This document shows, in pieces, positions 3,387-41,116 of a stretch of 45,805 bases of DNA. The notes beneath the pieces are model-generated. The model was given only the letters and a program-made list of their open reading frames with translations, was not told the DNA's origin and ran no database searches. How positions within the stretch are numbered: position 1 is the first letter of the stretch; each line of letters opens with the position of its first letter. Origin of the DNA: Enterobacteria phage vB_EcoS_Rogue1; sequence record NC_019718.1. One strand, written 5' to 3'. Made by a program: the position numbers and the translations under genes.

Positions 3387-3462
3387 GTTCTGCTGGCGTA
3401 ACAGGATAACGCAGAGACCTCCTAAGTCTCAGTTGCTGGTTCGAGTCCAGTGCGGAACACCA
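3387..3462 (+). tRNA. tRNA-Arg, anticodon CCU (reads AGG)
   Basis: Hand-folded cloverleaf: acceptor GTTCTGC/GCGGAAC (one G-U pair), D-stem GCGT/ACGC, anticodon stem GAGAC/GTCTC, loop CTCCTAA with U33 and A37, 4-nt variable loop, T-stem GCTGG/CCAGT, T-loop TTCGAGT, discriminator A, encoded CCA; 76 nt. Confidence 0.85.
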
Positions 3463-34429: not shown

Positions 34430-36373
34430 ATGGAAAACCGATTGAAAACAATACAAAAACAGATTGAAGAATTGGGCGAAGATAAGATTAAAGAGATTCA
34501 AACTAAATTCACCTCTTCTAACGGTATGGTTCCGTATAGCTATCAGTGTGTTATGTACAATGAGATTGCAAAGCGCATTAGTCGCTATGAGCATCCATTT
34601 ATCGCAATGGCTTCAGTTTCTGCTGGTAAGACTCTGGTTTTTGGTATGGTTGCTAAGCGTTGCTCTGAGCTTGGCTTGCCTATGCTTGTTCTTGCTCGTC
34701 AGGCAGAGCTGGTTAGCCAGAATGCTTCTGAGATTTCTGATTACGGGGTTCCTAACTCCATTTATTGCTCTGGGCTTGGAATAAAATCATCTTATTTCCC
34801 TGTGGTGGTTGGCTCTGAGGGCACAGTAGTTGGCGGGCTTAAGAAGTCACTTGGCGATTTCTGTCCTGCGGTAGTTGCTATTGATGAGTGTCACCATATT
34901 GATGACCAGGACATAGCGGAGGCAATTGATAACAATGAGACTGCGCAACAGGCATCAGATAAGGGGCGTAGCCAGTATACGGTCATCATCCTGACTTTAA
35001 TGGAGCGCTGCCGTGCTAAGTATGGCAAGAATCTTCGTATCTTTGGACTGACTGGTTCTCCTTTCCGTGGAACTACGCCAATAGTTGTTGAAAACAAAAA
35101 GGAGTTGGGATTTTGGCGTGAGACGGTCACAAATATCGATACAAACTACCTGGTCGAGTTCGGTTCCGTGGTTCCGACAAACTTTGGTGCTACTGATGGC
35201 GTTGGTTACGACCTCTCAGAGTTTGATGCATCATCTGAAGATGGTGTTCAGGATTACACTAAAGCCCAGCTTGAAGCCATGGATAAAAAGATTCAGGCAT
35301 CTGGAACAATGACAGCGGAGATAATGAAGAAAGTATGGCTTGCCGCGAAAAACAGGAATGGAGTTCTGGTAACATGCGCAGGTGAGCGCCATTGCCACGA
35401 AGCCGCAAGTTACCTTCCTGAAGGTGAAAAGTTCTGCATTATAACTGGAAAGACTGGCGAGAAGCAGCGCAAGGAGTTGCTTGATAAGTGCTTTAGCGGG
35501 GAGATTAAATATTGCTTTCAGGTTCAGGCGCTAACCACTGGCGTAAATGTGCCTACATGGGATACAAGCGTTATTCTGCGTAAGATTGGTAGCCTTACGC
35601 TCCTGGTTCAGCTACTTGGTCGAGGAATGCGTAAGCTTAAGAAGCTCCATGAAGATAAAGGAATGGTCAAGAATGACCATTTGGTACTGGACTTCGCAGG
35701 AACGATGGACTCTATGGCATCATTGTACTTCAATCCAATTCTTGAGCAGGCTCAATATCAGCTACGAAAGAGTAATGGCAAGGAGACTAAGCAGTGTCCA
35801 GTATGCGGAACAGAGAACAGCTTCTTTGCTCGACGTTGCATGCATATTGATGAGAATAATAATCGCTGCGAATATTTCTGGGTTAGTCGCACATGTGAAG
35901 ACCAGAAAGACCCACGAACCGGAAAGGTTATCGTTAAAGGCTGCGGAGTTCAGAATGACGTTGCAGCTAAGATTTGTAGGGGTTGCGATTGCACTTTGCT
36001 TGATCCAAATCTCAACTTAAGCGGCAAACATTACCGCAAGAACGACTGGTTTGATGTTGTTGACTTTAAGGTTGGGCTAACAAAGAACCAATCAGGAATC
36101 ATCTACAACTACATCCTTGATGATGGCATGGGTGGGACATTCAAAGCTCATGAGGTTTTCTTTGTAGAGTCTGACCATCGAGTATGTAAAACGCTCTGGT
36201 TGAACAATGGAATTAAAGGTCACGTAGTCGACATGAACGCTAAGCGATATATGGCTGCATATCGCAATGCTCGCAAGATTATGGAGTATGCGCAGTACAT
36301 CCATGCCCCTAAGAGGGTAACTCACCGCAAGACCGCTAAAGGTGGCGATAATATTGCTAATAAGGAGTTCTAA
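34430..36373 (+). CDS. superfamily-2 DNA helicase with C-terminal zinc ribbon
   Basis: Walker A SAGKTLV, DECHH box, QLLGRGMR arginine-finger motif, C-terminal CPVCG...C..C; start refined to the ATG at 34430. Confidence 0.75.
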   Translation: MENRLKTIQKQIEELGEDKIKEIQTKFTSSNGMVPYSYQCVMYNEIAKRISRYEHPFIAMASVSAGKTLVFGMVAKRCSELGLPMLVLARQAELVSQNASEISDYGVPNSIYCSGLGIKSSYFPVVVGSEGTVVGGLKKSLGDFCPAVVAIDECHHIDDQDIAEAIDNNETAQQASDKGRSQYTVIILTLMERCRAKYGKNLRIFGLTGSPFRGTTPIVVENKKELGFWRETVTNIDTNYLVEFGSVVPTNFGATDGVGYDLSEFDASSEDGVQDYTKAQLEAMDKKIQASGTMTAEIMKKVWLAAKNRNGVLVTCAGERHCHEAASYLPEGEKFCIITGKTGEKQRKELLDKCFSGEIKYCFQVQALTTGVNVPTWDTSVILRKIGSLTLLVQLLGRGMRKLKKLHEDKGMVKNDHLVLDFAGTMDSMASLYFNPILEQAQYQLRKSNGKETKQCPVCGTENSFFARRCMHIDENNNRCEYFWVSRTCEDQKDPRTGKVIVKGCGVQNDVAAKICRGCDCTLLDPNLNLSGKHYRKNDWFDVVDFKVGLTKNQSGIIYNYILDDGMGGTFKAHEVFFVESDHRVCKTLWLNNGIKGHVVDMNAKRYMAAYRNARKIMEYAQYIHAPKRVTHRKTAKGGDNIANKEF

Positions 36374-36762
36374 TGGTTAAGGTTTTTCACGACAAAACAA
36401 GCACGGACAAGGCTAAAGAGGTTGTTCACCAAATAAATTCAATAGCTTGGGTTCGCCACAACCATCCAGAGATATTTGCTTTTCACGTGAAGAATGAAGG
36501 TCTCAAGTCTATCGGCACAGCAATGAAGGACAAGCAGGAGGGAGTAATTAAGGGTGTATCAGATATTCTACTGATTGGACCAAATGGCTTTGCCGCAATA
36601 GAGCTTAAGCGAGCAATAAAATCAGATAGCAAGGTTTCAAAGGAGCAAAAGGAGTTCCTGGAAAAGGTATCAGAAACAGGAGGTTACGCGGCAATCTGTT
36701 ATGGGTTTGAAATGTTTAAGTTGGCAATTACAGATTATCTATCAAATAGCACGAATTGCTAA
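36373..36762 (+). CDS. VRR-NUC domain nuclease
   Basis: 129 aa with D-x(n)-IELK core (ISDILLIGPNGFAAIELKRA) typical of VRR-NUC/PD-(D/E)XK minimal nucleases. Confidence 0.6.
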   Translation: MVKVFHDKTSTDKAKEVVHQINSIAWVRHNHPEIFAFHVKNEGLKSIGTAMKDKQEGVIKGVSDILLIGPNGFAAIELKRAIKSDSKVSKEQKEFLEKVSETGGYAAICYGFEMFKLAITDYLSNSTNC

Positions 36763-36789
36763 AGAGATTTCGCAAGGATGCGATATAGT
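36747..36789 (+). promoter_or_regulatory. palindromic box TAGCA-CGAAT-TGCTA, 22-bp spacer, -10 TATAGT (36784-36789), leader CATCGAAACGAAGAGAGAGA
   Basis: Box overlaps the last codons of the VRR-NUC gene. Confidence 0.55.
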
Positions 36790-36820
36790 TACTTCATCGA
36801 AACGAAGAGAGAGAAACAAA

Positions 36821-37015
36821 ATGAATACTATCTACACTGAAAAGCTGTACAAGTCACGCAAAACTGGTTATGAATATGAATTAGCAATCACCCCTGAGGG
36901 TTATATTCTTGATGATGGAGACGGTTACTCATTCGAAGTTAGCCCAACATACAAAGATGATTTAGAGACTGTTAAAAACGCATTCGGCGAAAAATTTGAT
37001 GAGGTGTCAGAATAA
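36821..37015 (+). CDS. hypothetical protein (64 aa)
   Basis: Start refined to the ATG downstream of the promoter and leader. Confidence 0.5.
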   Translation: MNTIYTEKLYKSRKTGYEYELAITPEGYILDDGDGYSFEVSPTYKDDLETVKNAFGEKFDEVSE

Positions 37016-37233
37016 TGAAATTAACCTTTGATAAGCAATGGGAACTCTTTCAGGCAATGGTGGCGCAGGAGTTGAGTAAGGCTGGATATAAAAATGATGT
37101 TTGGGATTTAGCTTGGTGTCTTGATTATAGTTTCGAAGAGGATTATCTGAACACTGATATCGAAACATGGCGCGACCGAATGATTGCTGATATCGAAGAA
37201 ATGAAGAAAGATTGCCCGGAGGATTTTTCATGA
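37015..37233 (+). CDS. hypothetical acidic protein (72 aa)
   Basis: Translationally coupled (TAATG overlap). Confidence 0.5.
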   Translation: MKLTFDKQWELFQAMVAQELSKAGYKNDVWDLAWCLDYSFEEDYLNTDIETWRDRMIADIEEMKKDCPEDFS

Positions 37234-37430
37234 TTACTGCGACTTGCGTAATGACGAACGGCTCATTCACCCTGCTCAATGAGTATGAATTCAAACTTGA
37301 CCCGATTAATGACCAGGTTGAAATAGTTAGCGATGACGGATTTGCATGGAAGTTACATAATGAATTTGATGGGTACTACGGGTGTAATGATGCGAAAGGT
37401 AAGCATGTAAGTTTTCTTGTTTATGAGTAA
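37230..37430 (+). CDS. hypothetical protein (66 aa)
   Basis: Start refined to the ATGA overlap with the upstream stop. Confidence 0.45.
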   Translation: MITATCVMTNGSFTLLNEYEFKLDPINDQVEIVSDDGFAWKLHNEFDGYYGCNDAKGKHVSFLVYE

Positions 37431-37431
37431 A

Positions 37432-37474
37432 TAGCACTTTTTGTTAAAACTAAAATACAAGGATGGATTATATT
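37432..37474 (+). promoter_or_regulatory. palindromic box TAGCA-CTTTT-TGTTA, 22-bp spacer, -10 TATATT
   Basis: Box family member; leader with GAGAGGG RBS precedes the ATG at 37505. Confidence 0.5.
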
Positions 37475-37504
37475 AATTACATCAGCAAATGAGAGGGTTA
37501 AGAG

Positions 37505-37630
37505 ATGAAAATTATAGACAAAGAGATGTTCGAGATTGCGCAGTCTTTCGCAAATGACGCAGTTAAGACTGGATCTGAATATTGCTGGATGTGCGCTCGA
37601 GAATATTTAAAAATGGCTTACGGCCTATGA
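37505..37630 (+). CDS. small hypothetical protein (41 aa, Cys-x-x-Cys)
   Basis: ATG after RBS; stop overlaps the next start (ATGA). Confidence 0.4.
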   Translation: MKIIDKEMFEIAQSFANDAVKTGSEYCWMCAREYLKMAYGL

Positions 37631-37866
37631 TAGTTGAAACAGGACGCGCCGCTGTATGGGCGCATTGTGGAGAGGCGGGATTGCAGGATGACATCAAGAT
37701 GATAGGTAAATACTTTGATATTGATGACATATCTGTAGTTTTCAATGGGAAGTTTAGTTATATGAACCAGCGGCCACGCAAGTATGTAAGAGTTCCAGCA
37801 ACGCCTAGCCTCGCAATGTATCGTGAGGAAGGTAAGAAGATATTTAAGAAAGGTGCGAAGAAATGA
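37627..37866 (+). CDS. hypothetical protein (79 aa)
   Basis: Start refined to the ATGA overlap. Confidence 0.45.
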   Translation: MIVETGRAAVWAHCGEAGLQDDIKMIGKYFDIDDISVVFNGKFSYMNQRPRKYVRVPATPSLAMYREEGKKIFKKGAKK

Positions 37867-38120
37867 ATTTACCTGGTCTAGATTTTGATGAGAGTAAGTA
37901 TCAGGTTGTGTTTTTTGGTGAGAAGCCTTATCGGAAGATTCCTTTCTCTGAGTGGATTCCTCCGGACTACCTCGATGTACTGGTGCAAATTGAGATTGGT
38001 AAAGCTGAGTTGATGTACTATTCGCCAGGTTGCAATATGATGATGCCTAGTGAGTATTCACCAGCAATTTCTTCTCTAGAAACTGAGTTTCTTGATTACT
38101 GGCTAAAAGAAGTAAAATAG
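37863..38120 (+). CDS. hypothetical protein (85 aa)
   Basis: Coupled ORF (ATGA overlap); stop overlaps the next palindromic box. Confidence 0.5.
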   Translation: MNLPGLDFDESKYQVVFFGEKPYRKIPFSEWIPPDYLDVLVQIEIGKAELMYYSPGCNMMMPSEYSPAISSLETEFLDYWLKEVK

Positions 38121-38160
38121 CACTTTTTGTTAAAACACATCGCCATGGATGGCGTATAGT
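38118..38160 (+). promoter_or_regulatory. palindromic box TAGCA-CTTTT-TGTTA, 22-bp spacer, -10 TATAGT (38155-38160), leader CATCGAAACGAGAGA
   Basis: Box family member; a 22-codon hydrophobic mini-ORF (38188-38256) lies in the leader before the phosphoesterase gene. Confidence 0.55.
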
Positions 38161-38271
38161 GTGTTCATCGAAACGAGAGACGATTCAGATGAAAACATTA
38201 CTACCGTTGATGGCTATGCCATTAACCTTTATAATCATGTACTTCATAATCTGCTAACAGGAAATTAAATA

Positions 38272-39405
38272 ATGGCTATAGCTAAAATCACCAACGAAGA
38301 GTTAAAGCAAGAACTGGCTAACGGTATGACTAACAAGGCAATCGCAGAGAAGTACGGTATGAATATTCGTAACGTAGAGCTGCGTCGCAGCAAGTTGGCT
38401 AAGGCTGGGGATGGTCACGGTCGCGATGTGAGTAACCTAATTCCTCAGGGCTACATGGTTAAAGGTGTATCTAGCCTTGTTGATAATGATGGCAATGTGA
38501 AGTTGCAATGGGTTAAGTCCTCTATTGATGCAGAGAAGCTTGAGGAGATGATGAATCAAGCGCGAGAGGCATTCTCTAGCGAGCTACCAAAAGAAAAAGC
38601 AGTTAAATCTGAAGGTCTGAATTTTGATGAAGATACTTTAGCTATGTATCCAGTATTTGACCTTCACATTGGCGCAATGGCCCACAAGCATGAGTGCGGA
38701 GAAAACTACGACACAGCAACGGCAGAGAAAGTAATGAACGATTATTTTGACTACGCCGTACAGAAATCTCCAAATTCAAAGAATGCTGTACTAGTGCTAG
38801 GAGGTGATCTGCTTCATTATGATTCTTTGGAAGCCAAAACTCCAGCCAGTGGTCACATCCTGGACAGTGACAGTCGCTACGCCAAGATTGTTTATGTTTG
38901 CATTCGAGCGGTTCGCCGCGCAATTCGAAACATGCTTAGCAAACATGAAAACGTAGAGGTTAAAGTTATATCTGGTAATCATGATGAAAGTGGTATGGTT
39001 TGGTTGCGGGCTGCGCTTGCTGCATTTTATGAGGAAGAGCCACGCGTTAGTATTGATGTTAGTCCCGCGGCAATGATGGTAACTAAGTTTGGTTCTACAA
39101 TGCTTGGTTTCACTCACGGGCATCAAATGCGTAAAGCTGATACTCGCCTTTCGGTTATGGCTACTGACTGGCGACGTGACTTTGGTTTAAGTGATTATGT
39201 ATACACCCACTCAGGCCACTGGCATTCACAGAAGATTACAGAGACAAATCTTGGTATTGATGAGGTTCATGGTCAGCTTGGTTCACCAGATGCATATAGT
39301 GCGAATGGTGGATGGCGCTCACAAAGGCAGGCCGCGGTAATCATCTATCATAAAGAGTTTGGTGAGGTTGGTCGCTTTATCTGCCGTCCAGAAATGTTCA
39401 AATAA
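38272..39405 (+). CDS. calcineurin-like metallophosphoesterase with N-terminal HTH-like region
   Basis: Motifs FDLHIG (D-x-H), GGDLLHYD (GD-x-x-D), GNHDE and GHWH in canonical order; N-terminal LKQELANGMTNKAIAEKYGMNIRNVELRR resembles an HTH. Confidence 0.7.
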   Translation: MAIAKITNEELKQELANGMTNKAIAEKYGMNIRNVELRRSKLAKAGDGHGRDVSNLIPQGYMVKGVSSLVDNDGNVKLQWVKSSIDAEKLEEMMNQAREAFSSELPKEKAVKSEGLNFDEDTLAMYPVFDLHIGAMAHKHECGENYDTATAEKVMNDYFDYAVQKSPNSKNAVLVLGGDLLHYDSLEAKTPASGHILDSDSRYAKIVYVCIRAVRRAIRNMLSKHENVEVKVISGNHDESGMVWLRAALAAFYEEEPRVSIDVSPAAMMVTKFGSTMLGFTHGHQMRKADTRLSVMATDWRRDFGLSDYVYTHSGHWHSQKITETNLGIDEVHGQLGSPDAYSANGGWRSQRQAAVIIYHKEFGEVGRFICRPEMFK

Positions 39406-39420
39406 TATCACTTTTTGTTA
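39406..39420 (+). promoter_or_regulatory. degenerate palindromic box TATCA-CTTTT-TGTTA followed by a GC hairpin
   Basis: Abuts the phosphoesterase stop; downstream -10 unclear. Confidence 0.3.
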
Positions 39421-39470
39421 AAGCCCTTCGAGGCTTTTGAGATGCGTCAGCTACAGATATAGGAATCAAA

Positions 39471-39668
39471 ATGATTACAGAGATGATTTTAGTTGCAAGC
39501 CTTTCATCTCCATTGGTATCTCAACAGTATTGTGAACTTGGAAAAGAGATTTACCATGAAGGAGTGGAATTAAGAACGGTTGTTGATTGGCTTAATCACA
39601 GCACGATGAATATTGATGATAAAAAGATTGTCCTTGAGTGCTATATAGTGGAGTCAAATAAAGTCTAA
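39471..39668 (+). CDS. hypothetical protein (65 aa)
   Basis: ATG after AGGAA RBS. Confidence 0.45.
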   Translation: MITEMILVASLSSPLVSQQYCELGKEIYHEGVELRTVVDWLNHSTMNIDDKKIVLECYIVESNKV

Positions 39669-39711
39669 ATAGCACGAATTGCTAAAACGAAAATCAAAAG
39701 ATGGGGTATAG
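39669..39711 (+). promoter_or_regulatory. palindromic box TAGCA-CGAAT-TGCTA, 22-bp spacer, -10 TATAGT embedded in inverted repeat GATGGGG/CCCCATC
   Basis: Box centre is about 42 bp upstream of the predicted transcription start. Confidence 0.55.
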
Positions 39712-39744
39712 TTACCCCATCTAAACAAACGAGAGGATACAAAG

Positions 39745-39930
39745 ATGGCTAAATTCACACAATCAGATGCACAAATCGAAGTTAAAGATGTTGGTTTTGG
39801 TAAGACCTTTAAGATTGCGCAGGCATACGGCTCTAGCGAAGAAGATGTAAAAGTTGACACTATCAATCTTACTGCTAAGAATGCTCGTGAAATTGCCTAC
39901 GCAATCCTAGATGCACTTGGAGAGCGCTAA
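39745..39930 (+). CDS. hypothetical acidic protein (61 aa)
   Basis: ATG after GAGAGGA RBS. Confidence 0.5.
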   Translation: MAKFTQSDAQIEVKDVGFGKTFKIAQAYGSSEEDVKVDTINLTAKNAREIAYAILDALGER

Positions 39931-40118
39931 TGCTTCAAACAATTAAAGCCGACATGGTTAAGGTGGGTGATGAAGTTTTGTTCTTAAACTGCCCACCGCA
40001 GGTAGTTAAGGCTACAAGCCTTGAGTATTACCCTGGCTGTATTTTCGTAATGATTAAGACCATTGGTGGTAACTGCTTCCCAATTAATGTAAACACACTT
40101 ATTTGCGTAAACCGTTAA
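39930..40118 (+). CDS. hypothetical protein (62 aa)
   Basis: Coupled ORF (TAATG overlap). Confidence 0.45.
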   Translation: MLQTIKADMVKVGDEVLFLNCPPQVVKATSLEYYPGCIFVMIKTIGGNCFPINVNTLICVNR

Positions 40119-40130
40119 GAGATTATCAAA

Positions 40131-40304
40131 ATGACTAAATTATTCTGCGTTAGCAACAAATCAAAATCACTGCCTTTCACTGTAAACAACCCTTACAGTG
40201 GTGAGTACCAGGGGGATGGTAATTATAAGATTTATGGCGATGACATGACTTGGATCTTCGCTCCCATTGATGGAGAACTGGTGGAATTCATTATCGCAGA
40301 CTAA
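40131..40304 (+). CDS. hypothetical protein (57 aa)
   Basis: ORF below the track cutoff, found by manual translation; followed by a terminator. Confidence 0.35.
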   Translation: MTKLFCVSNKSKSLPFTVNNPYSGEYQGDGNYKIYGDDMTWIFAPIDGELVEFIIAD

Positions 40305-40331
40305 CTTATAAGAAACATCAACTTGCAAACA

Positions 40332-40356
40332 GGCGGCCTTTATGGCTGCCTTTTTT
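40332..40356 (+). terminator. rho-independent terminator
   Basis: GGCGGCC-TTTAT-GGCTGCC hairpin (one G-U pair) followed by TTTTTT. Confidence 0.6.
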
Positions 40357-40418
40357 CTTTTATGTCAAAGTTTAATATCTGGTATTATTTAATCAAATCA
40401 ACTTAAAGAGGCCGCAAC

Positions 40419-40634
40419 ATGAAGCATTTCTATGACGCAGCCGCCTTGTCCGGTAGCGGAGTAGCTATGGGTGGCGGTTTATCTGACAACACAATCATCG
40501 GCATTATTGGCTTAGTTATCGCCGTATGCTTTGGTATTTTTGGCGCATGGCTGCGCTGGCGTGACAGTAAGGCGCTCCATAAAGCACTTGAAGATGGGGA
40601 TATTCGAGAGGCAATGAGAATCAGGAGTAAATAA
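40419..40634 (+). CDS. holin (probable pinholin)
   Basis: 71 aa; Gly-rich weak TMD then strong TMD IIGIIGLVIAVCFGIFGAWL; charged C-terminus; directly upstream of a SAR endolysin. Confidence 0.55.
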   Translation: MKHFYDAAALSGSGVAMGGGLSDNTIIGIIGLVIAVCFGIFGAWLRWRDSKALHKALEDGDIREAMRIRSK

Positions 40635-41116
40635 TGAGCATTAAAAATAAGGTAATTGGTTCTGCTGTGGCTGGTGCCATGGCTCTGGCGGTTCCGTTCC
40701 TTAATGAGCATGAAGGCGTTGAGTGCAAGCCTTACAAGGATGTTGCTGGGGTATGGACTATTTGCGCAGGAATCACTGGTCCTGACGTTATTCTGGGCAA
40801 GGTTTACACACAGCGAGAGTGTGATGCACTACTTATGAAGCACTTGTCAATTCATCGTGCCGCTGTTGATAAAGCGTTAAAGGTTGATGTTCCAGTTAGC
40901 ACCAGGGCTGCCTTGTATAGTTTCTCATTCAACGTGGGAACTAATGCGATGCGCAAATCAACGGCAATGAGGAAGATTAATTCCGGAGATATCTATGGCG
41001 GTTGCAATGCCTTAAGGCTATTTAACAAGATTACAATTAATGGTAAAAAGGTTGTATCTAAGGGTTTGGATAATAGACGTGACGCGGAGGTGAAGCTATG
41101 CGTTTCGGAGTTGTAG
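40634..41116 (+). CDS. SAR endolysin (phage lysozyme, GH24-like)
   Basis: N-terminal signal-anchor-release segment (VIGSAVAGAMALAVPFL) followed by EGVECKPYKDVAGVWTICAG, resembling the catalytic E-x8-D-x5-T region of P21-type lysozymes. Confidence 0.75.
   Translation: MSIKNKVIGSAVAGAMALAVPFLNEHEGVECKPYKDVAGVWTICAGITGPDVILGKVYTQRECDALLMKHLSIHRAAVDKALKVDVPVSTRAALYSFSFNVGTNAMRKSTAMRKINSGDIYGGCNALRLFNKITINGKKVVSKGLDNRRDAEVKLCVSEL

Follow-up and report, generated by a model that had tools for sequence, protein, structure and literature searches.

The region 36746-40351 of the phage vB_EcoS_Rogue1 genome carries about eleven small genes in short cassettes, headed by a repeated promoter module whose box matches perfectly the binding site (marbox) of the host stress regulators MarA, SoxS and Rob. 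This suggests that the phage family may borrow a host activator to express its genes, although activator binding and dependence are inferred from sequence alone. The window, i.e. the whole stretch of 45,805 nucleotides analysed (NC_019718.1), is a Rogunavirus genome (Drexlerviridae, T1-like) and is 99.7% identical to a deposited phage.

Gene and box content of the region

An earlier note, made from the sequence alone, had described about ten ORFs of 41-85 aa in translationally coupled groups headed by four box promoters, and this observation was confirmed. All ten ORFs start where the note placed them, have the sizes given and are annotated as genes in near-identical phages. Five junctions are overlapping stop and start codons (TAATG at 37013-37017 and 39928-39932, ATGA at 37230, 37627 and 37863), so the translational coupling is real in the sequence. 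The four boxes are present, one base off the numbers in the note. The sequence ATAGCACNNNTTGYTAAA with up to 3 mismatches occurs 18 times in the window against 3.6 expected, and 0 of 100 shuffled sequences reached 18. Several features had been overlooked, namely a metallophosphoesterase gene in the middle of the stretch of small ORFs, an unannotated hydrophobic micro-ORF conserved across the family, and a fifth, degenerate box with no -10 at the proper spacing. ORF o7 is therefore not headed by an intact box. The statement in the note that no ORF has a recognisable motif is nearly right, the exception being the DUF7244 match of o10. Features are collected in Table 1.

Table 1. Features of the region 36746-40351 (all on the + strand; o1-o10 are the ten small ORFs, P1-P4 the four intact boxes; start sites are inferred; pN/pS values are within the subfamily; hairpin z-scores are against shuffles).
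Feature	Coordinates	Description	Supporting observations
Box P1	36746..36763	Marbox ATAGCACGAATTGCTAAA; overlaps the stop codon of the VRR-NUC gene	Perfect match to both marbox consensi
-10 of P1	36784..36789	TATAGT, 20 nt after the box; inferred start site A at about 36796	Weak spacer hairpin at 36770-36783, z = -0.4
o1	36821..37015	64 aa, acidic (net charge -8.5); seen only in Rogunavirus so far	phrog_6031, E = 1.5e-36; only 97-98% identical homologues found, too close to measure selection
o2	37015..37233	72 aa, very acidic (-10.5), predicted four helices; homologues follow the Dam methylase gene in T1 (ST19) and TLS (gp62)	PHROG family member; pN/pS 0.20-0.39; AlphaFold pLDDT 70, no fold matches
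o3	37230..37430	66 aa, acidic; ATGA-coupled to o2	phrog_3249; pN/pS 0.32-0.49
Box P2	37431..37448	Marbox ATAGCACTTTTTGTTAAA; -10 TATATT at 37469-37474; inferred start site about 37481	Perfect match to both marbox consensi; hairpin z = -2.2
o4	37505..37630	41 aa, helical; present in Rtp and other T1-like contigs	phrog_2180; weak hit to the Kil family phrog_2055 (E = 8.6e-5), not confirmed against lambda Kil; pN/pS 0.12-0.20
o5	37627..37866	79 aa, basic (pI 9.6); found in every Drexlerviridae genome compared here (T1 40242-40457, unannotated there; TLS gp64; Rtp)	pN/pS 0.02-0.16; narrow family, 31 cluster representatives among 1.84 billion proteins; AlphaFold model poor, pLDDT 50
o6	37863..38120	85 aa, acidic; homologue of T1 ST17, also in Rtp	PHROG family member; pN/pS 0.06-0.09
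Box P3	38117..38134	Marbox; its TAG is the stop codon of o6; -10 TATAGT at 38155-38160; inferred start site about 38167	Perfect match to both marbox consensi; hairpin at 38141-38154, z = -2.0
Micro-ORF	38189..38257	Unannotated, 22 aa, MKTLLPLMAMPLTFIIMYFIIC; hydrophobic, probably one membrane helix	Equivalent 22-27 aa hydrophobic ORFs directly upstream of the phosphoesterase gene in T1, Rtp and four IMG/VR contigs, with diverged DNA but the C-terminal motif MY(F/W/A)(I/V)(I/V)M kept; nearly invariant within Rogunavirinae
Metallophosphoesterase	38272..39405	'DNA repair exonuclease', 377 aa, with an N-terminal LuxR/sigma-region-4-like helix-turn-helix; core gene of the family	phrog_704, E = 1.7e-155; Metallophos and GerE hits weak; 56-80% identical in T1, TLS and Rtp; KP36 record cites Sigma70_r4_2
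Degenerate box and hairpin	39405..39437	Box at 39405-39422 (ATATCAC, the G of GCAC lost) fused to hairpin AAAGCC-CTTCGA-GGCTTT; probably a terminator after the phosphoesterase gene and the left junction of a swappable cassette	Annotated as a terminator in AHP42; homology with AHP42 and e4/1c ends at 39411 and 39397
o7	39471..39668	65 aa; replaced by an HNH endonuclease gene in AHP42, Sf12 and T1	phrog_19819; pN/pS 0.22 against Opt-79
Box P4	39669..39686	Marbox ATAGCACGAATTGCTAAA; -10 TATAGT at 39707-39712; inferred start site about 39719; strong hairpin at 39699-39722 brackets the -10	Perfect match to both marbox consensi; hairpin -17.2 kcal/mol, z = -6.7; homology with AHP42, e4/1c, EB49 and Sf12 resumes at 39665-39667
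o8	39745..39930	61 aa	phrog_7411; pN/pS 0.03-0.16
o9	39930..40118	62 aa; cleanly absent from Opt-79 and EB49	Homology gap 39923 to 40129; pN/pS 0.26-0.45
o10	40131..40304	57 aa, DUF7244; present in Rtp	Pfam PF23896, 101 bits (cut-off 27); pN/pS 0-0.14
Terminator	40331..40351	Intrinsic terminator closing the cluster ahead of the holin gene (40419)	-15.5 kcal/mol, z = -4.0; annotated as a terminator in AHP42

Identity and geometry of the box

The box is the 21-nt Drexlerviridae repeat aaATAGCACnnnTTGnTAAAA, published in 2024 with its function unknown (PMC11447400); its match to the marbox is the new point here. The window contains 13 perfect matches to the literature marbox gcannwwntgnnaaa against 1.1 expected, and 15 perfect matches to AYNGCACNNWNNRYYAAA, the consensus reportedly given by Martin et al. 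(1999), against 0.05 expected. The same holds for T1 (15 against 0.09), TLS (17 against 0.10) and 19.8 kb of Klebsiella phage KP36 (5 against 0.01), while T7 has none. Phage boxes that depart from the phage consensus still fit the marbox because the changes fall on its degenerate positions. In 93 independent sites from T1-like contigs, free position 10 is A/T in 93 of 93 and position 14 is C/T. The box is 16/20 identical to the E. coli mar marbox. The fit is not complete, however, as position 19 is A rather than Y in 71 of 93 sites and the B site is TAAA rather than the CAAA of micF, although the mar marbox also has TAAA.

The spacing to the -10 hexamer was compared with that of the host micF promoter. 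In micF the G of GCAC lies 35 nt, and the AAA 20 nt, before the -10 hexamer and the phage spacing is identical. Of the 93 sites, 82 have a -10 hexamer exactly 20 nt after the box, and an A lies 7 nt downstream of the -10 in 71 of these 82. That places GCAC at -47 to -44, as in the Rob-micF cryo-EM complex. The best -35 match is only 2-3 of 6 in 76 of 82 sites; mapped class II promoters, in which a forward marbox near -41 overlaps the -35, average 1.9 matches.

A search for MarA homologues found none encoded in the window, T1 or TLS (best E about 0.5), and no AraC-family annotation appears in four annotated genome records, of which KP36 covered only the last 19.8 kb. Rob is constitutive and abundant and displaces sigma region 4.

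Given these results, the most likely mechanism is a host-activator-dependent promoter, a reading considered somewhat more likely than not. The anatomy of the module is visible in the sequence: a box of 18-20 bp, a 20-nt spacer that usually forms a hairpin, a -10 hexamer (TATAGT or TATATT), and a short A-rich leader (about 25-30 nt at P1, P2 and P4, longer at P3 where it carries the micro-ORF) followed by one to three translationally coupled small genes. The region consists of four such composite modules plus one decayed module. The start site, placed at an A 7 nt beyond the -10, is inferred, as are activator binding and activator dependence, nothing here being experimental. In this view a monomer of a host marbox-binding activator would occupy the box centred near -41, take the place of the sigma70 region 4/-35 contact and recruit E. 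coli RNA polymerase, with transcripts ending at the hairpin of the next module or at the 40331 terminator. Rob would be the most likely activator because it is constitutive and abundant, and MarA or SoxS would do the same under stress. Against this, most Rob is sequestered and inactive without inducers and MarA and SoxS are scarce in unstressed cells, yet T1-like phages grow fast in plain broth, and rob is not known to have been reported from a phage-resistance screen.

The growth of T1-like phages without any known inducer of Rob, MarA or SoxS would suit an alternative in which the modules are factor-independent sigma70 promoters, the polymerase using the strong, often extended, -10 and the A/T-rich, TTG-containing box acting as an UP-like element or displaced -35 that touches the polymerase directly. 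TG is present at -15/-14 in 37 of 82 sites, and G at -14 in 67 of 82; an extended -10 can make a promoter independent of the -35 and perhaps of an activator. The authors of the TLS study also noted a resemblance to UP elements (PMC11447400). However, the four promoters in this region have no TG, TTGYTA lies 22 nt from the -10, which is too far for sigma region 4, and the invariant half ATAGCAC is not A/T-rich and does not fit the UP-element consensus. Conservation of every marbox-specific position across four genera would also be unexplained. This alternative is thus thought unlikely.

A phage-encoded DNA-binding protein, acting as an activator or as a repressor in the manner of a 'stoperator', cannot be excluded either, the likeness to the marbox then being coincidental or convergent. 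Two candidates are encoded: a family-wide Cro/YdaS-like regulator of 157 aa (33864-34337, minus strand), conserved in every subfamily at 54-58% identity, and the helix-turn-helix at the N-terminus of the metallophosphoesterase. The box contains an imperfect palindrome, TAGCA-N5-TGCTA, which would suit a dimeric helix-turn-helix protein, and stoperators or enhancer-binding sites were proposed by the TLS authors. Boxes that abut start codons without a -10 (window 21764, T1 25021, TLS 24908) are not explained by a promoter role and fit an operator better. However, the symmetry fails exactly where the marbox is asymmetric: position 14 is C or T (56:37), C7 and T11 are not complementary, and the conserved right flank is AAAA rather than TT. 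A chance match to 8 fixed and 2-6 degenerate marbox positions, in the right orientation and at the exact micF spacing, is very unlikely. Furthermore, these are virulent phages and the annotated records show no integrase or immunity repressor. This explanation is also regarded as improbable, if slightly less so than the previous one.

Hairpins and cassette boundaries

Hairpins in the modules have a mean z of -3.2 against shuffles, with arms that covary. Homology breakpoints with five relatives fall at 36806-7, 38178-89, 39397-39422 and 39665-7, i.e. at the modules. This suggests a second role in which the repeated modules act as recombination junctions where gene cassettes are swapped between related phages, recombination being inferred from the breakpoints only.

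Conservation and possible roles of the small genes

The ORFs are real genes. All belong to PHROG families, and nine of ten show pN/pS of 0-0.5 within the subfamily. The earlier note proposed that a phage-specific promoter type drives a dedicated array of early host-takeover and anti-defence genes, and this interpretation is only partly supported. Coupled cassettes of real genes do lie behind a shared promoter type. Intact box promoters with strong -10 hexamers are concentrated in the non-structural 25-46 kb part of the genome (11 sites), the 21-kb structural block has none of that quality and the lysis genes lie behind a terminator without a box. An early or middle role is therefore plausible as an inference from position. 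The ORFs are also small, mostly acidic, of unknown function and partly lineage-specific, and the equivalent slot in T1, TLS and KP36 holds a Dam methylase.

However, the promoter is not phage-specific in sequence, being a perfect match to a host marbox in class II geometry. The boxes are genome-wide and also head the helicase, recombination and metallophosphoesterase genes, so the box does not mark a takeover cluster. Several ORFs are not fast-evolving accessory genes, since o2, o5, o6, o10 and the micro-ORF are conserved in T1, TLS and/or Rtp, and o5 and o6 are under strong purifying selection. No host-takeover or anti-defence function could be shown, and none of the ORFs received a function: Pfam, NCBIfam, PADLOC, PDB and fold searches were empty, with no similarity to any known takeover, anti-defence or defence protein. 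The one lead, the Kil-like hit of o4, failed direct comparison. A dedicated takeover cluster is thus doubtful on present evidence. The gene content is mixed, with a family-conserved set (o2, o5, o6, the micro-ORF, the metallophosphoesterase and o10) that probably serves DNA metabolism, and lineage-specific small acidic proteins (o1, o3, o7-o9) occupying slots that in T1 and TLS hold the Dam methylase or HNH endonucleases.

Comparison with known systems

The class II MarA/SoxS/Rob (RamA)-dependent promoters of Enterobacteria, such as micF, share with the phage modules an asymmetric 20-bp marbox with A site GCAC and B site YAAA 7 nt apart, the forward orientation centred near -41, the identical spacing to the -10 and the absence of a -35 hexamer alongside a canonical -10 and start site. 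The phage boxes differ in being found 15-20 times in the genome of a virulent phage rather than in host stress genes, in being far closer to consensus (zero mismatches, against one each for micF and mar), and in having an embedded hairpin between box and start site; activator binding is only inferred for them. The direct repeats of phage TLS, also noted in T1, Rtp and Rogue1 (German et al. 2024, PMC11447400), are the same element, with the same consensus, the same orientation with transcription, a position about 72-76 nt upstream of start codons and the same A/T/G subtypes. That paper left the function open (stoperator, enhancer site or UP element) and did not connect the repeat to the marbox, to a fixed -10 or to the hairpin.

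The PeSLs (promoter-early stem-loops) of T4-like phages (PMC2839356, PMC4122927) are composite promoter/terminator motifs that mediate modular shuffling. They are likewise short repeated promoter and stem-loop modules which flank small ORFs of unknown function in variable regions, and insertion, deletion and replacement boundaries between related phages coincide with them. Their sequence appears unrelated. T4 early promoters are strong canonical sigma70 promoters with a -35, whereas the modules here have a marbox instead. In T4 middle promoters the -35 contact is replaced by an activator box containing TGCT combined with a normal -10, but the MotA box is centred near -30 and needs the phage proteins MotA and AsiA, the latter for sigma appropriation; no homologues of these are annotated here and the box position differs (-50 to -33). 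The stoperators of mycobacteriophage L5, a comparison made by the TLS authors, are also many copies of an asymmetric site oriented with transcription and lying between genes. Stoperators are bound by a prophage repressor to silence a temperate genome, whereas these phages are virulent and the box sits at a fixed distance from a -10 hexamer.

Genomic context and verification of the small genes

The 4-kb region is 99.7% identical to Escherichia phage vB_EcoS-BECP10 and 97.5-99.5% identical to UDF157lw, AHP24, AHS24, C119 and phiKP26, which are all Rogunavirus, family Drexlerviridae, i.e. T1-like siphoviruses. The gene order is helicase, VRR-NUC, small ORFs, a metallophosphoesterase, more small ORFs, then holin, endolysin and spanin.

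The earlier note had described ten small early ORFs in translationally coupled groups headed by four box promoters, and had suggested that such arrays encode host-takeover and anti-defence proteins. What it observed is real: all ten ORF starts exist (here o1 to o10, in genome order), the ORFs are annotated genes in relatives and five junctions are overlapping stop/start codons, TAATG or ATGA. The four boxes, P1 to P4, were found, and the motif ATAGCACNNNTTGYTAAA with up to 3 mismatches occurs 18 times in the window against 3.6 expected. However, three features had been left out, namely the metallophosphoesterase, a 22-aa hydrophobic ORF and a fifth box whose GCAC has decayed to TCAC and which is fused to a terminator-like hairpin, with no -10 hexamer at the right distance. 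In the UDF157lw record o1 is annotated as a 104-aa protein starting inside the VRR-NUC gene, upstream of the inferred P1 start site, but AHP42 and e4/1c use a 64-aa version which fits the promoter. The positions of these and other features are collected in the table below.

Positions of the features discussed in Rogue1 and in related phages
Genome	Position	Strand	Feature
Rogue1	3387-3462	+	tRNA-Arg (CCT), as annotated in related Rogunaviruses
Rogue1	21764-21781		A-type marbox without a -10 hexamer; departs from the phage consensus
Rogue1	26871		Box departing from the phage consensus
Rogue1	28870		Box departing from the phage consensus
Rogue1	34350		Box promoter at the helicase gene
Rogue1	34379		Mechanical start of the helicase ORF
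Rogue1	about 34387-34392		-10 of the promoter at 34350
Rogue1	about 34430		ATG, probable real start of the helicase
Rogue1	36701-36820		Segment where records differ on the start of o1
Rogue1	36746		Box P1
Rogue1	36795-36806		Conserved first transcribed bases (inferred start site)
Rogue1	36806-7		Homology breakpoint, just after the inferred P1 start site
Rogue1	36821		Start of the 64-aa version of o1
Rogue1	37431		Box P2
Rogue1	37505		o4, 41 aa
Rogue1	38117		Box P3
Rogue1	38166-38177		Conserved first transcribed bases (inferred start site)
Rogue1	38178-38189		Homology breakpoint, after the inferred P3 start site
Rogue1	38189-38257	+	Unannotated 22-aa micro-ORF
Rogue1	38189-38272		Almost invariant 85-nt segment
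Rogue1	38206-38226		Hairpin within this segment
Rogue1	38207-38235		Sigma70-like promoter, TTGATG-17-TATAAT
Rogue1	38272-38400		N-terminus of the phosphoesterase
Rogue1	38272-39405		Metallophosphoesterase, 377 aa
Rogue1	39397-39422		Homology breakpoint at the decayed box
Rogue1	39405		Fifth, decayed box
Rogue1	39665-7		Homology breakpoint at the start of box P4
Rogue1	39669		Box P4
Rogue1	40131		o10
Rogue1	40331		Terminator
Rogue1	40352-40418		Stretch ahead of the lysis cassette with the extended -10 TGGTATTAT
T1	8362		A-type marbox without a -10 hexamer
T1	15086	-	Antisense box in an intergenic gap
T1	18850	-	Antisense box in an intergenic gap
T1	25021		A-type marbox without a -10 hexamer
T1	40242-40457		o5 homologue, not annotated in RefSeq
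T1	40308		'Box', a coding-sequence coincidence inside the o5 homologue
T1	about 40745-40816		Micro-ORF
TLS	15042	-	Antisense box in an intergenic gap
TLS	24908		A-type marbox without a -10 hexamer
Rtp (sequence L044)	upstream of 877		Micro-ORF

Anatomy of the repeated promoter module

The box itself is already known. German et al. 2024 described a 21-nt direct repeat, aaATAGCACnnnTTGnTAAAA, at 21 places in phage TLS, oriented with transcription and about 76 nt before start codons, and noted it in T1, Rtp and Rogue1 as well. Their conservative searches found only three sigma70-type promoters in TLS and they offered stoperators, enhancer sites or UP elements as guesses for the role of the repeat. 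The boxes examined here are the same element, with P1 to P4 lying 72-76 nt before start codons. In this window the boxes are spread over the whole genome on both strands, always pointing at the downstream gene.

Sixty sites were collected from the window, T1 and TLS, followed by 93 unique sites from these three genomes together with multi-box T1-like IMG/VR contigs. In 82 of the 93 sites a -10-like hexamer (CATAAT, TATAGT, TATTAT, TATAAT and similar) starts exactly 20 nt after the box. Position 7 after the hexamer is A in 71 of those 82 sites, usually preceded by C, which is a typical start site. The best match to TTGACA at a 16-18 nt spacer is only 2-3 of 6 in 76 of 82 sites, and there is thus no recognisable -35 hexamer. 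A plain sigma70 promoter with TTGCTA as the -35 was rejected since TTGYTA inside the box is 22 nt from the -10, too far to serve. A sigma-54 promoter was rejected by inspection: the box resembles TGGCAC-N5-TTGC but the spacing is 3 nt rather than 5 and it has AG rather than GG. TG at -15/-14 is present in 37 of 82 sites, and factor-independent extended -10 promoters therefore remain possible. The first transcribed bases, as placed by the inferred start sites, are conserved (CAUCGAAACGA) across promoters and subfamilies.

The -10 of the box promoter at the helicase gene lies inside the mechanical helicase ORF and, as relatives annotate a 647-aa protein, the real start is probably further downstream. 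A-type marboxes without a -10 hexamer sit on or right before the start codon of the tail-fibre J gene (and of terS in T1), a position conserved in three subfamilies. A promoter role does not explain them, though a roadblock or repression role is possible. In T1 and TLS some boxes lie antisense to the head and tail structural genes, and the position near the major head gene is shared by the two phages.

The box matches the MarA/SoxS/Rob marbox

The literature consensus for MarA/SoxS/Rob sites is the non-palindromic 5'-gcannwwntgnnaaa-3', and class II promoters carry it in forward orientation overlapping the -35 (PMC12052159; PMC10268841). The window has 13 perfect matches against 1.1 expected. 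The longer consensus AYnGCACnnWnnRYYAAA, also written AYnGCACnnWnnRYYAAAY and reportedly that of Martin et al. 1999, has 15 perfect matches against 0.05 expected. All four boxes of this region are perfect. T1 has 15 matches against 0.09 expected, TLS 17 against 0.10 and a 19.8-kb part of Klebsiella phage KP36 (Webervirus) 5 against 0.01, while T7 has none. Boxes that depart from the phage consensus, three in the window and ACGGCACAAATAGCTAAA in KP36, still satisfy the marbox because their changes fall on degenerate positions. The free position 10 is W in 93 of 93 sites and position 14 is C or T. The phage consensus is 16/20 identical to the E. coli mar marbox ATGCCACGTTTTGCTAAATC, read from MG1655.

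The geometry matches that of micF. In the MG1655 micF promoter the sequence is ACAGCACTGAATGTCAAAA, then 19 nt, then TAGAAT, so that the G of GCAC lies 35 nt, and the AAA 20 nt, before the hexamer. The phage modules have exactly the same spacing. With the inferred +1, GCAC occupies -47 to -44, which are the positions contacted by Rob in the cryo-EM complex (-47G, -45A; PMC9178005), and the site is centred at about -41, as stated for micF. Class II promoters mapped by ChIP-seq and Cappable-seq match the -35 at 1.9 positions on average (PMC10268841), in agreement with the phage promoters.

Rob is constitutive and abundant and displaces sigma70 region 4 from the -35 (PMC9178005). A phage-encoded MarA/AraC homologue was looked for and not found: tblastn and phmmer searches with E. 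coli MarA against the window, T1 and TLS gave nothing better than E = 0.5, and no AraC-family gene is annotated in the records examined. The one family-wide regulator, of 157 aa, is Cro/YdaS-like and the Rha-like protein is absent from T1 and TLS. It is therefore inferred that a host marbox-binding protein activates these promoters, though a phage-encoded binder remains possible. The palindrome-like core TAGCA-N5-TGCTA argues for a dimeric phage protein, but the symmetry breaks exactly where the marbox is asymmetric, at Y14, the non-complementary C7/T11 pair and the AAAA flank. Another possible phage-encoded DNA binder is the N-terminus of the phosphoesterase, where residues 9-43 resemble a LuxR/GerE or sigma70-region-4 helix-turn-helix (GerE E = 0.038; FixJ and TtrR hits; the KP36 record cites Sigma70_r4_2), an unusual fusion to a calcineurin-like phosphoesterase. 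As regards an L5-type stoperator, bound by a phage repressor in a temperate phage, no integrase or immunity repressor is annotated, although the Cro-like regulator exists.

Hairpins and cassette boundaries

The 40 nt from the box end to about +5 fold much better than shuffles, with a mean z = -3.2 over 82 sites and 82% of sites below -1.5. The arm sequences differ from promoter to promoter. Some hairpins lie wholly in the spacer, and these were annotated as rho-independent terminators by the T1 authors, whereas others bracket the -10. In some promoters the conserved first transcribed bases form the outer 3' arm of the hairpin. Locally, z is -0.4 for P1, -2.2 for P2, -2.0 for P3 and -6.7 for P4. 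The modules are thus composite terminator/promoters. Homology between this window and AHP42, e4/1c, Opt-79, EB49 and Sf12 breaks at the modules, at the four breakpoints listed in the table. o7 is replaced by an HNH endonuclease in AHP42 and o9 is cleanly missing from Opt-79 and EB49.

The encoded proteins

All ten ORFs hit PHROG families of unknown function, with E from 1e-21 to 1e-45. Pairwise pN/pS values against relatives within the subfamily are tabulated below; comparisons to T1 and TLS are saturated and run higher, up to 0.66.

Pairwise pN/pS of the small ORFs within the subfamily
ORF	pN/pS
o5	0.02-0.16
o6	0.06-0.09
o8	0.03-0.16
o10	0-0.14
o4	0.12-0.20
o2	0.20-0.39
o7	0.22
o9	0.26-0.45
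o3	0.32-0.49
o1	no diverged homologue available

o2, o5, o6 and o10 have homologues in T1, TLS and/or Rtp and the phosphoesterase is a core gene. The T1 RefSeq record does not annotate the o5 homologue, which is 57% identical over 72 aa and lies between ST18 and ST17. In T1, TLS and KP36 the slot after VRR-NUC holds a Dam methylase followed by the o2 homologue. The set o5, o6, micro-ORF and phosphoesterase is syntenic across the family. The cluster therefore mixes a conserved module, probably DNA-metabolic, with exchangeable accessory cassettes. o1-o3, o6, o7 and o10 are acidic, with net charges from -4.5 to -10.5.

The micro-ORF, of 22-27 aa, lies directly upstream of the metallophosphoesterase gene throughout Drexlerviridae and is ATGA-coupled to the o6 homologue in T1, Rtp and the related sequence L103. 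Its C-terminal motif MY(F/W/A)(I/V)(I/V)M is kept, and it is probably a tiny membrane peptide. The 85-nt segment containing it is almost invariant among Rogunavirinae, even where the upstream context differs (EB49, Sf12), while neighbouring genes show pS of 0.5-0.7. The segment contains a sigma70-like promoter and a hairpin with an A:T to C:G compensatory change in AHP42 and e4/1c, and may be a second promoter or an RNA element for the phosphoesterase gene.

No function could be assigned to the small ORFs. Pfam gave only DUF7244 for o10 (101.1 bits against a gathering threshold of 27, residues 1-57 of 57). Searches with NCBIfam and PADLOC gave no hits, PDB sequence searches with the o2 and o5 profiles, o8 and the phosphoesterase gave nothing significant, and Rfam over 36300-40500 gave nothing near threshold. 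Labels in the UDF157lw record (HEPN, NFACT-R_1, DUF771, signal peptidase I, transcriptional regulator) were not reproduced by Pfam or NCBIfam. A lambda Kil-like septation inhibitor was considered for o4 because of a PHROG family hit at E = 8.6e-5. However, BLASTP against lambda Kil found nothing, hhalign gave a probability of 1.2% and a homologue search found only close relatives, so this function is not supported. The homologue search for o6 returned a single protein. The o5 family is narrow, with 31 cluster representatives among 1.84 billion proteins, and its predicted structure from a 28-sequence alignment was unusable (pLDDT 50). The structure of o2 predicted from a single sequence (pLDDT 70) is a small helical bundle with no Foldseek match in the PDB or BFVD.

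Timing of expression

Searches on T1 early and late transcription found nothing relevant and no transcript data in the literature that was searchable, and a paper on toxic pre-early genes concerned T5-like phages rather than this family. Strong T- and G-type boxes (subtypes of the repeat) cluster in the non-structural 25-46 kb (11 sites), while the structural block has only A-type or decayed boxes. The lysis genes follow a terminator and have no box, their only promoter-like feature being an extended -10, and they therefore use a different promoter type from the small-ORF cassettes. 'Early or middle' expression of the cassettes is therefore plausible but unproven. The interpretation in the earlier note is only partly supported.

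Discussion

Small ORFs of unknown function behind a repeated promoter are already known, and the ORFs themselves remain ordinary genes. What is added here is the identification of the repeat as a near-consensus class II marbox with an embedded hairpin that also marks recombination junctions, as inferred from the homology breakpoints. The match to the marbox, its orientation and spacing to the -10, the hairpins and the breakpoints are found directly in the sequences, but the start sites, binding by MarA, SoxS or Rob and dependence of transcription on such an activator are inferred. Activation by host MarA/SoxS/Rob is considered slightly more likely than not to be the mechanism.

T1-like phages encode no RNA polymerase or sigma factor and how they are transcribed has been an open question, for which reading the repeat as a class II marbox gives a concrete mechanism that is directly testable. 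A broader reading, possible but rather less likely than not, is that Drexlerviridae have handed recognition of most of their non-structural (early/middle) promoters to the host MarA/SoxS/Rob regulon. Fifteen to twenty near-consensus class II marboxes per genome would then make phage gene expression depend on, or be tuned by, the regulators that control antibiotic efflux, porins and the TolC receptor. Hosts lacking rob, or rob, marA and soxS, would resist these phages, Mar-up antibiotic-resistant mutants and cues such as bile or salicylate would favour them, and replicating phage DNA would titrate the regulators away from host promoters. The same modules would serve as mobile promoter/terminator cassettes that shuffle small genes. 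If the reading of the repeat as a class II marbox is correct, a very common family of enteric and laboratory-contaminant phages is tied to the antibiotic-stress regulon of the host, which bears on phage therapy against mar/sox/ram-upregulated resistant strains, on phage-antibiotic and phage-bile interactions in the gut and on the engineering of T1-resistant production strains.

Full-text searches of the accessible literature found no paper linking marboxes to phage promoters and no report of a virulent phage relying on a host class II activator across its non-structural genes, as would be the case here. In sequence, orientation and spacing to the -10 the modules agree with class II promoters such as micF. 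As composite terminator/promoters they are like the PeSLs of T4-like phages (PMC4122927), in which homology between related phages likewise breaks at the modules. The comparison is one of apparent mode of action rather than of membership, and in this sense the cassette-junction behaviour extends the PeSL idea from T4-like myoviruses to a siphovirus family.
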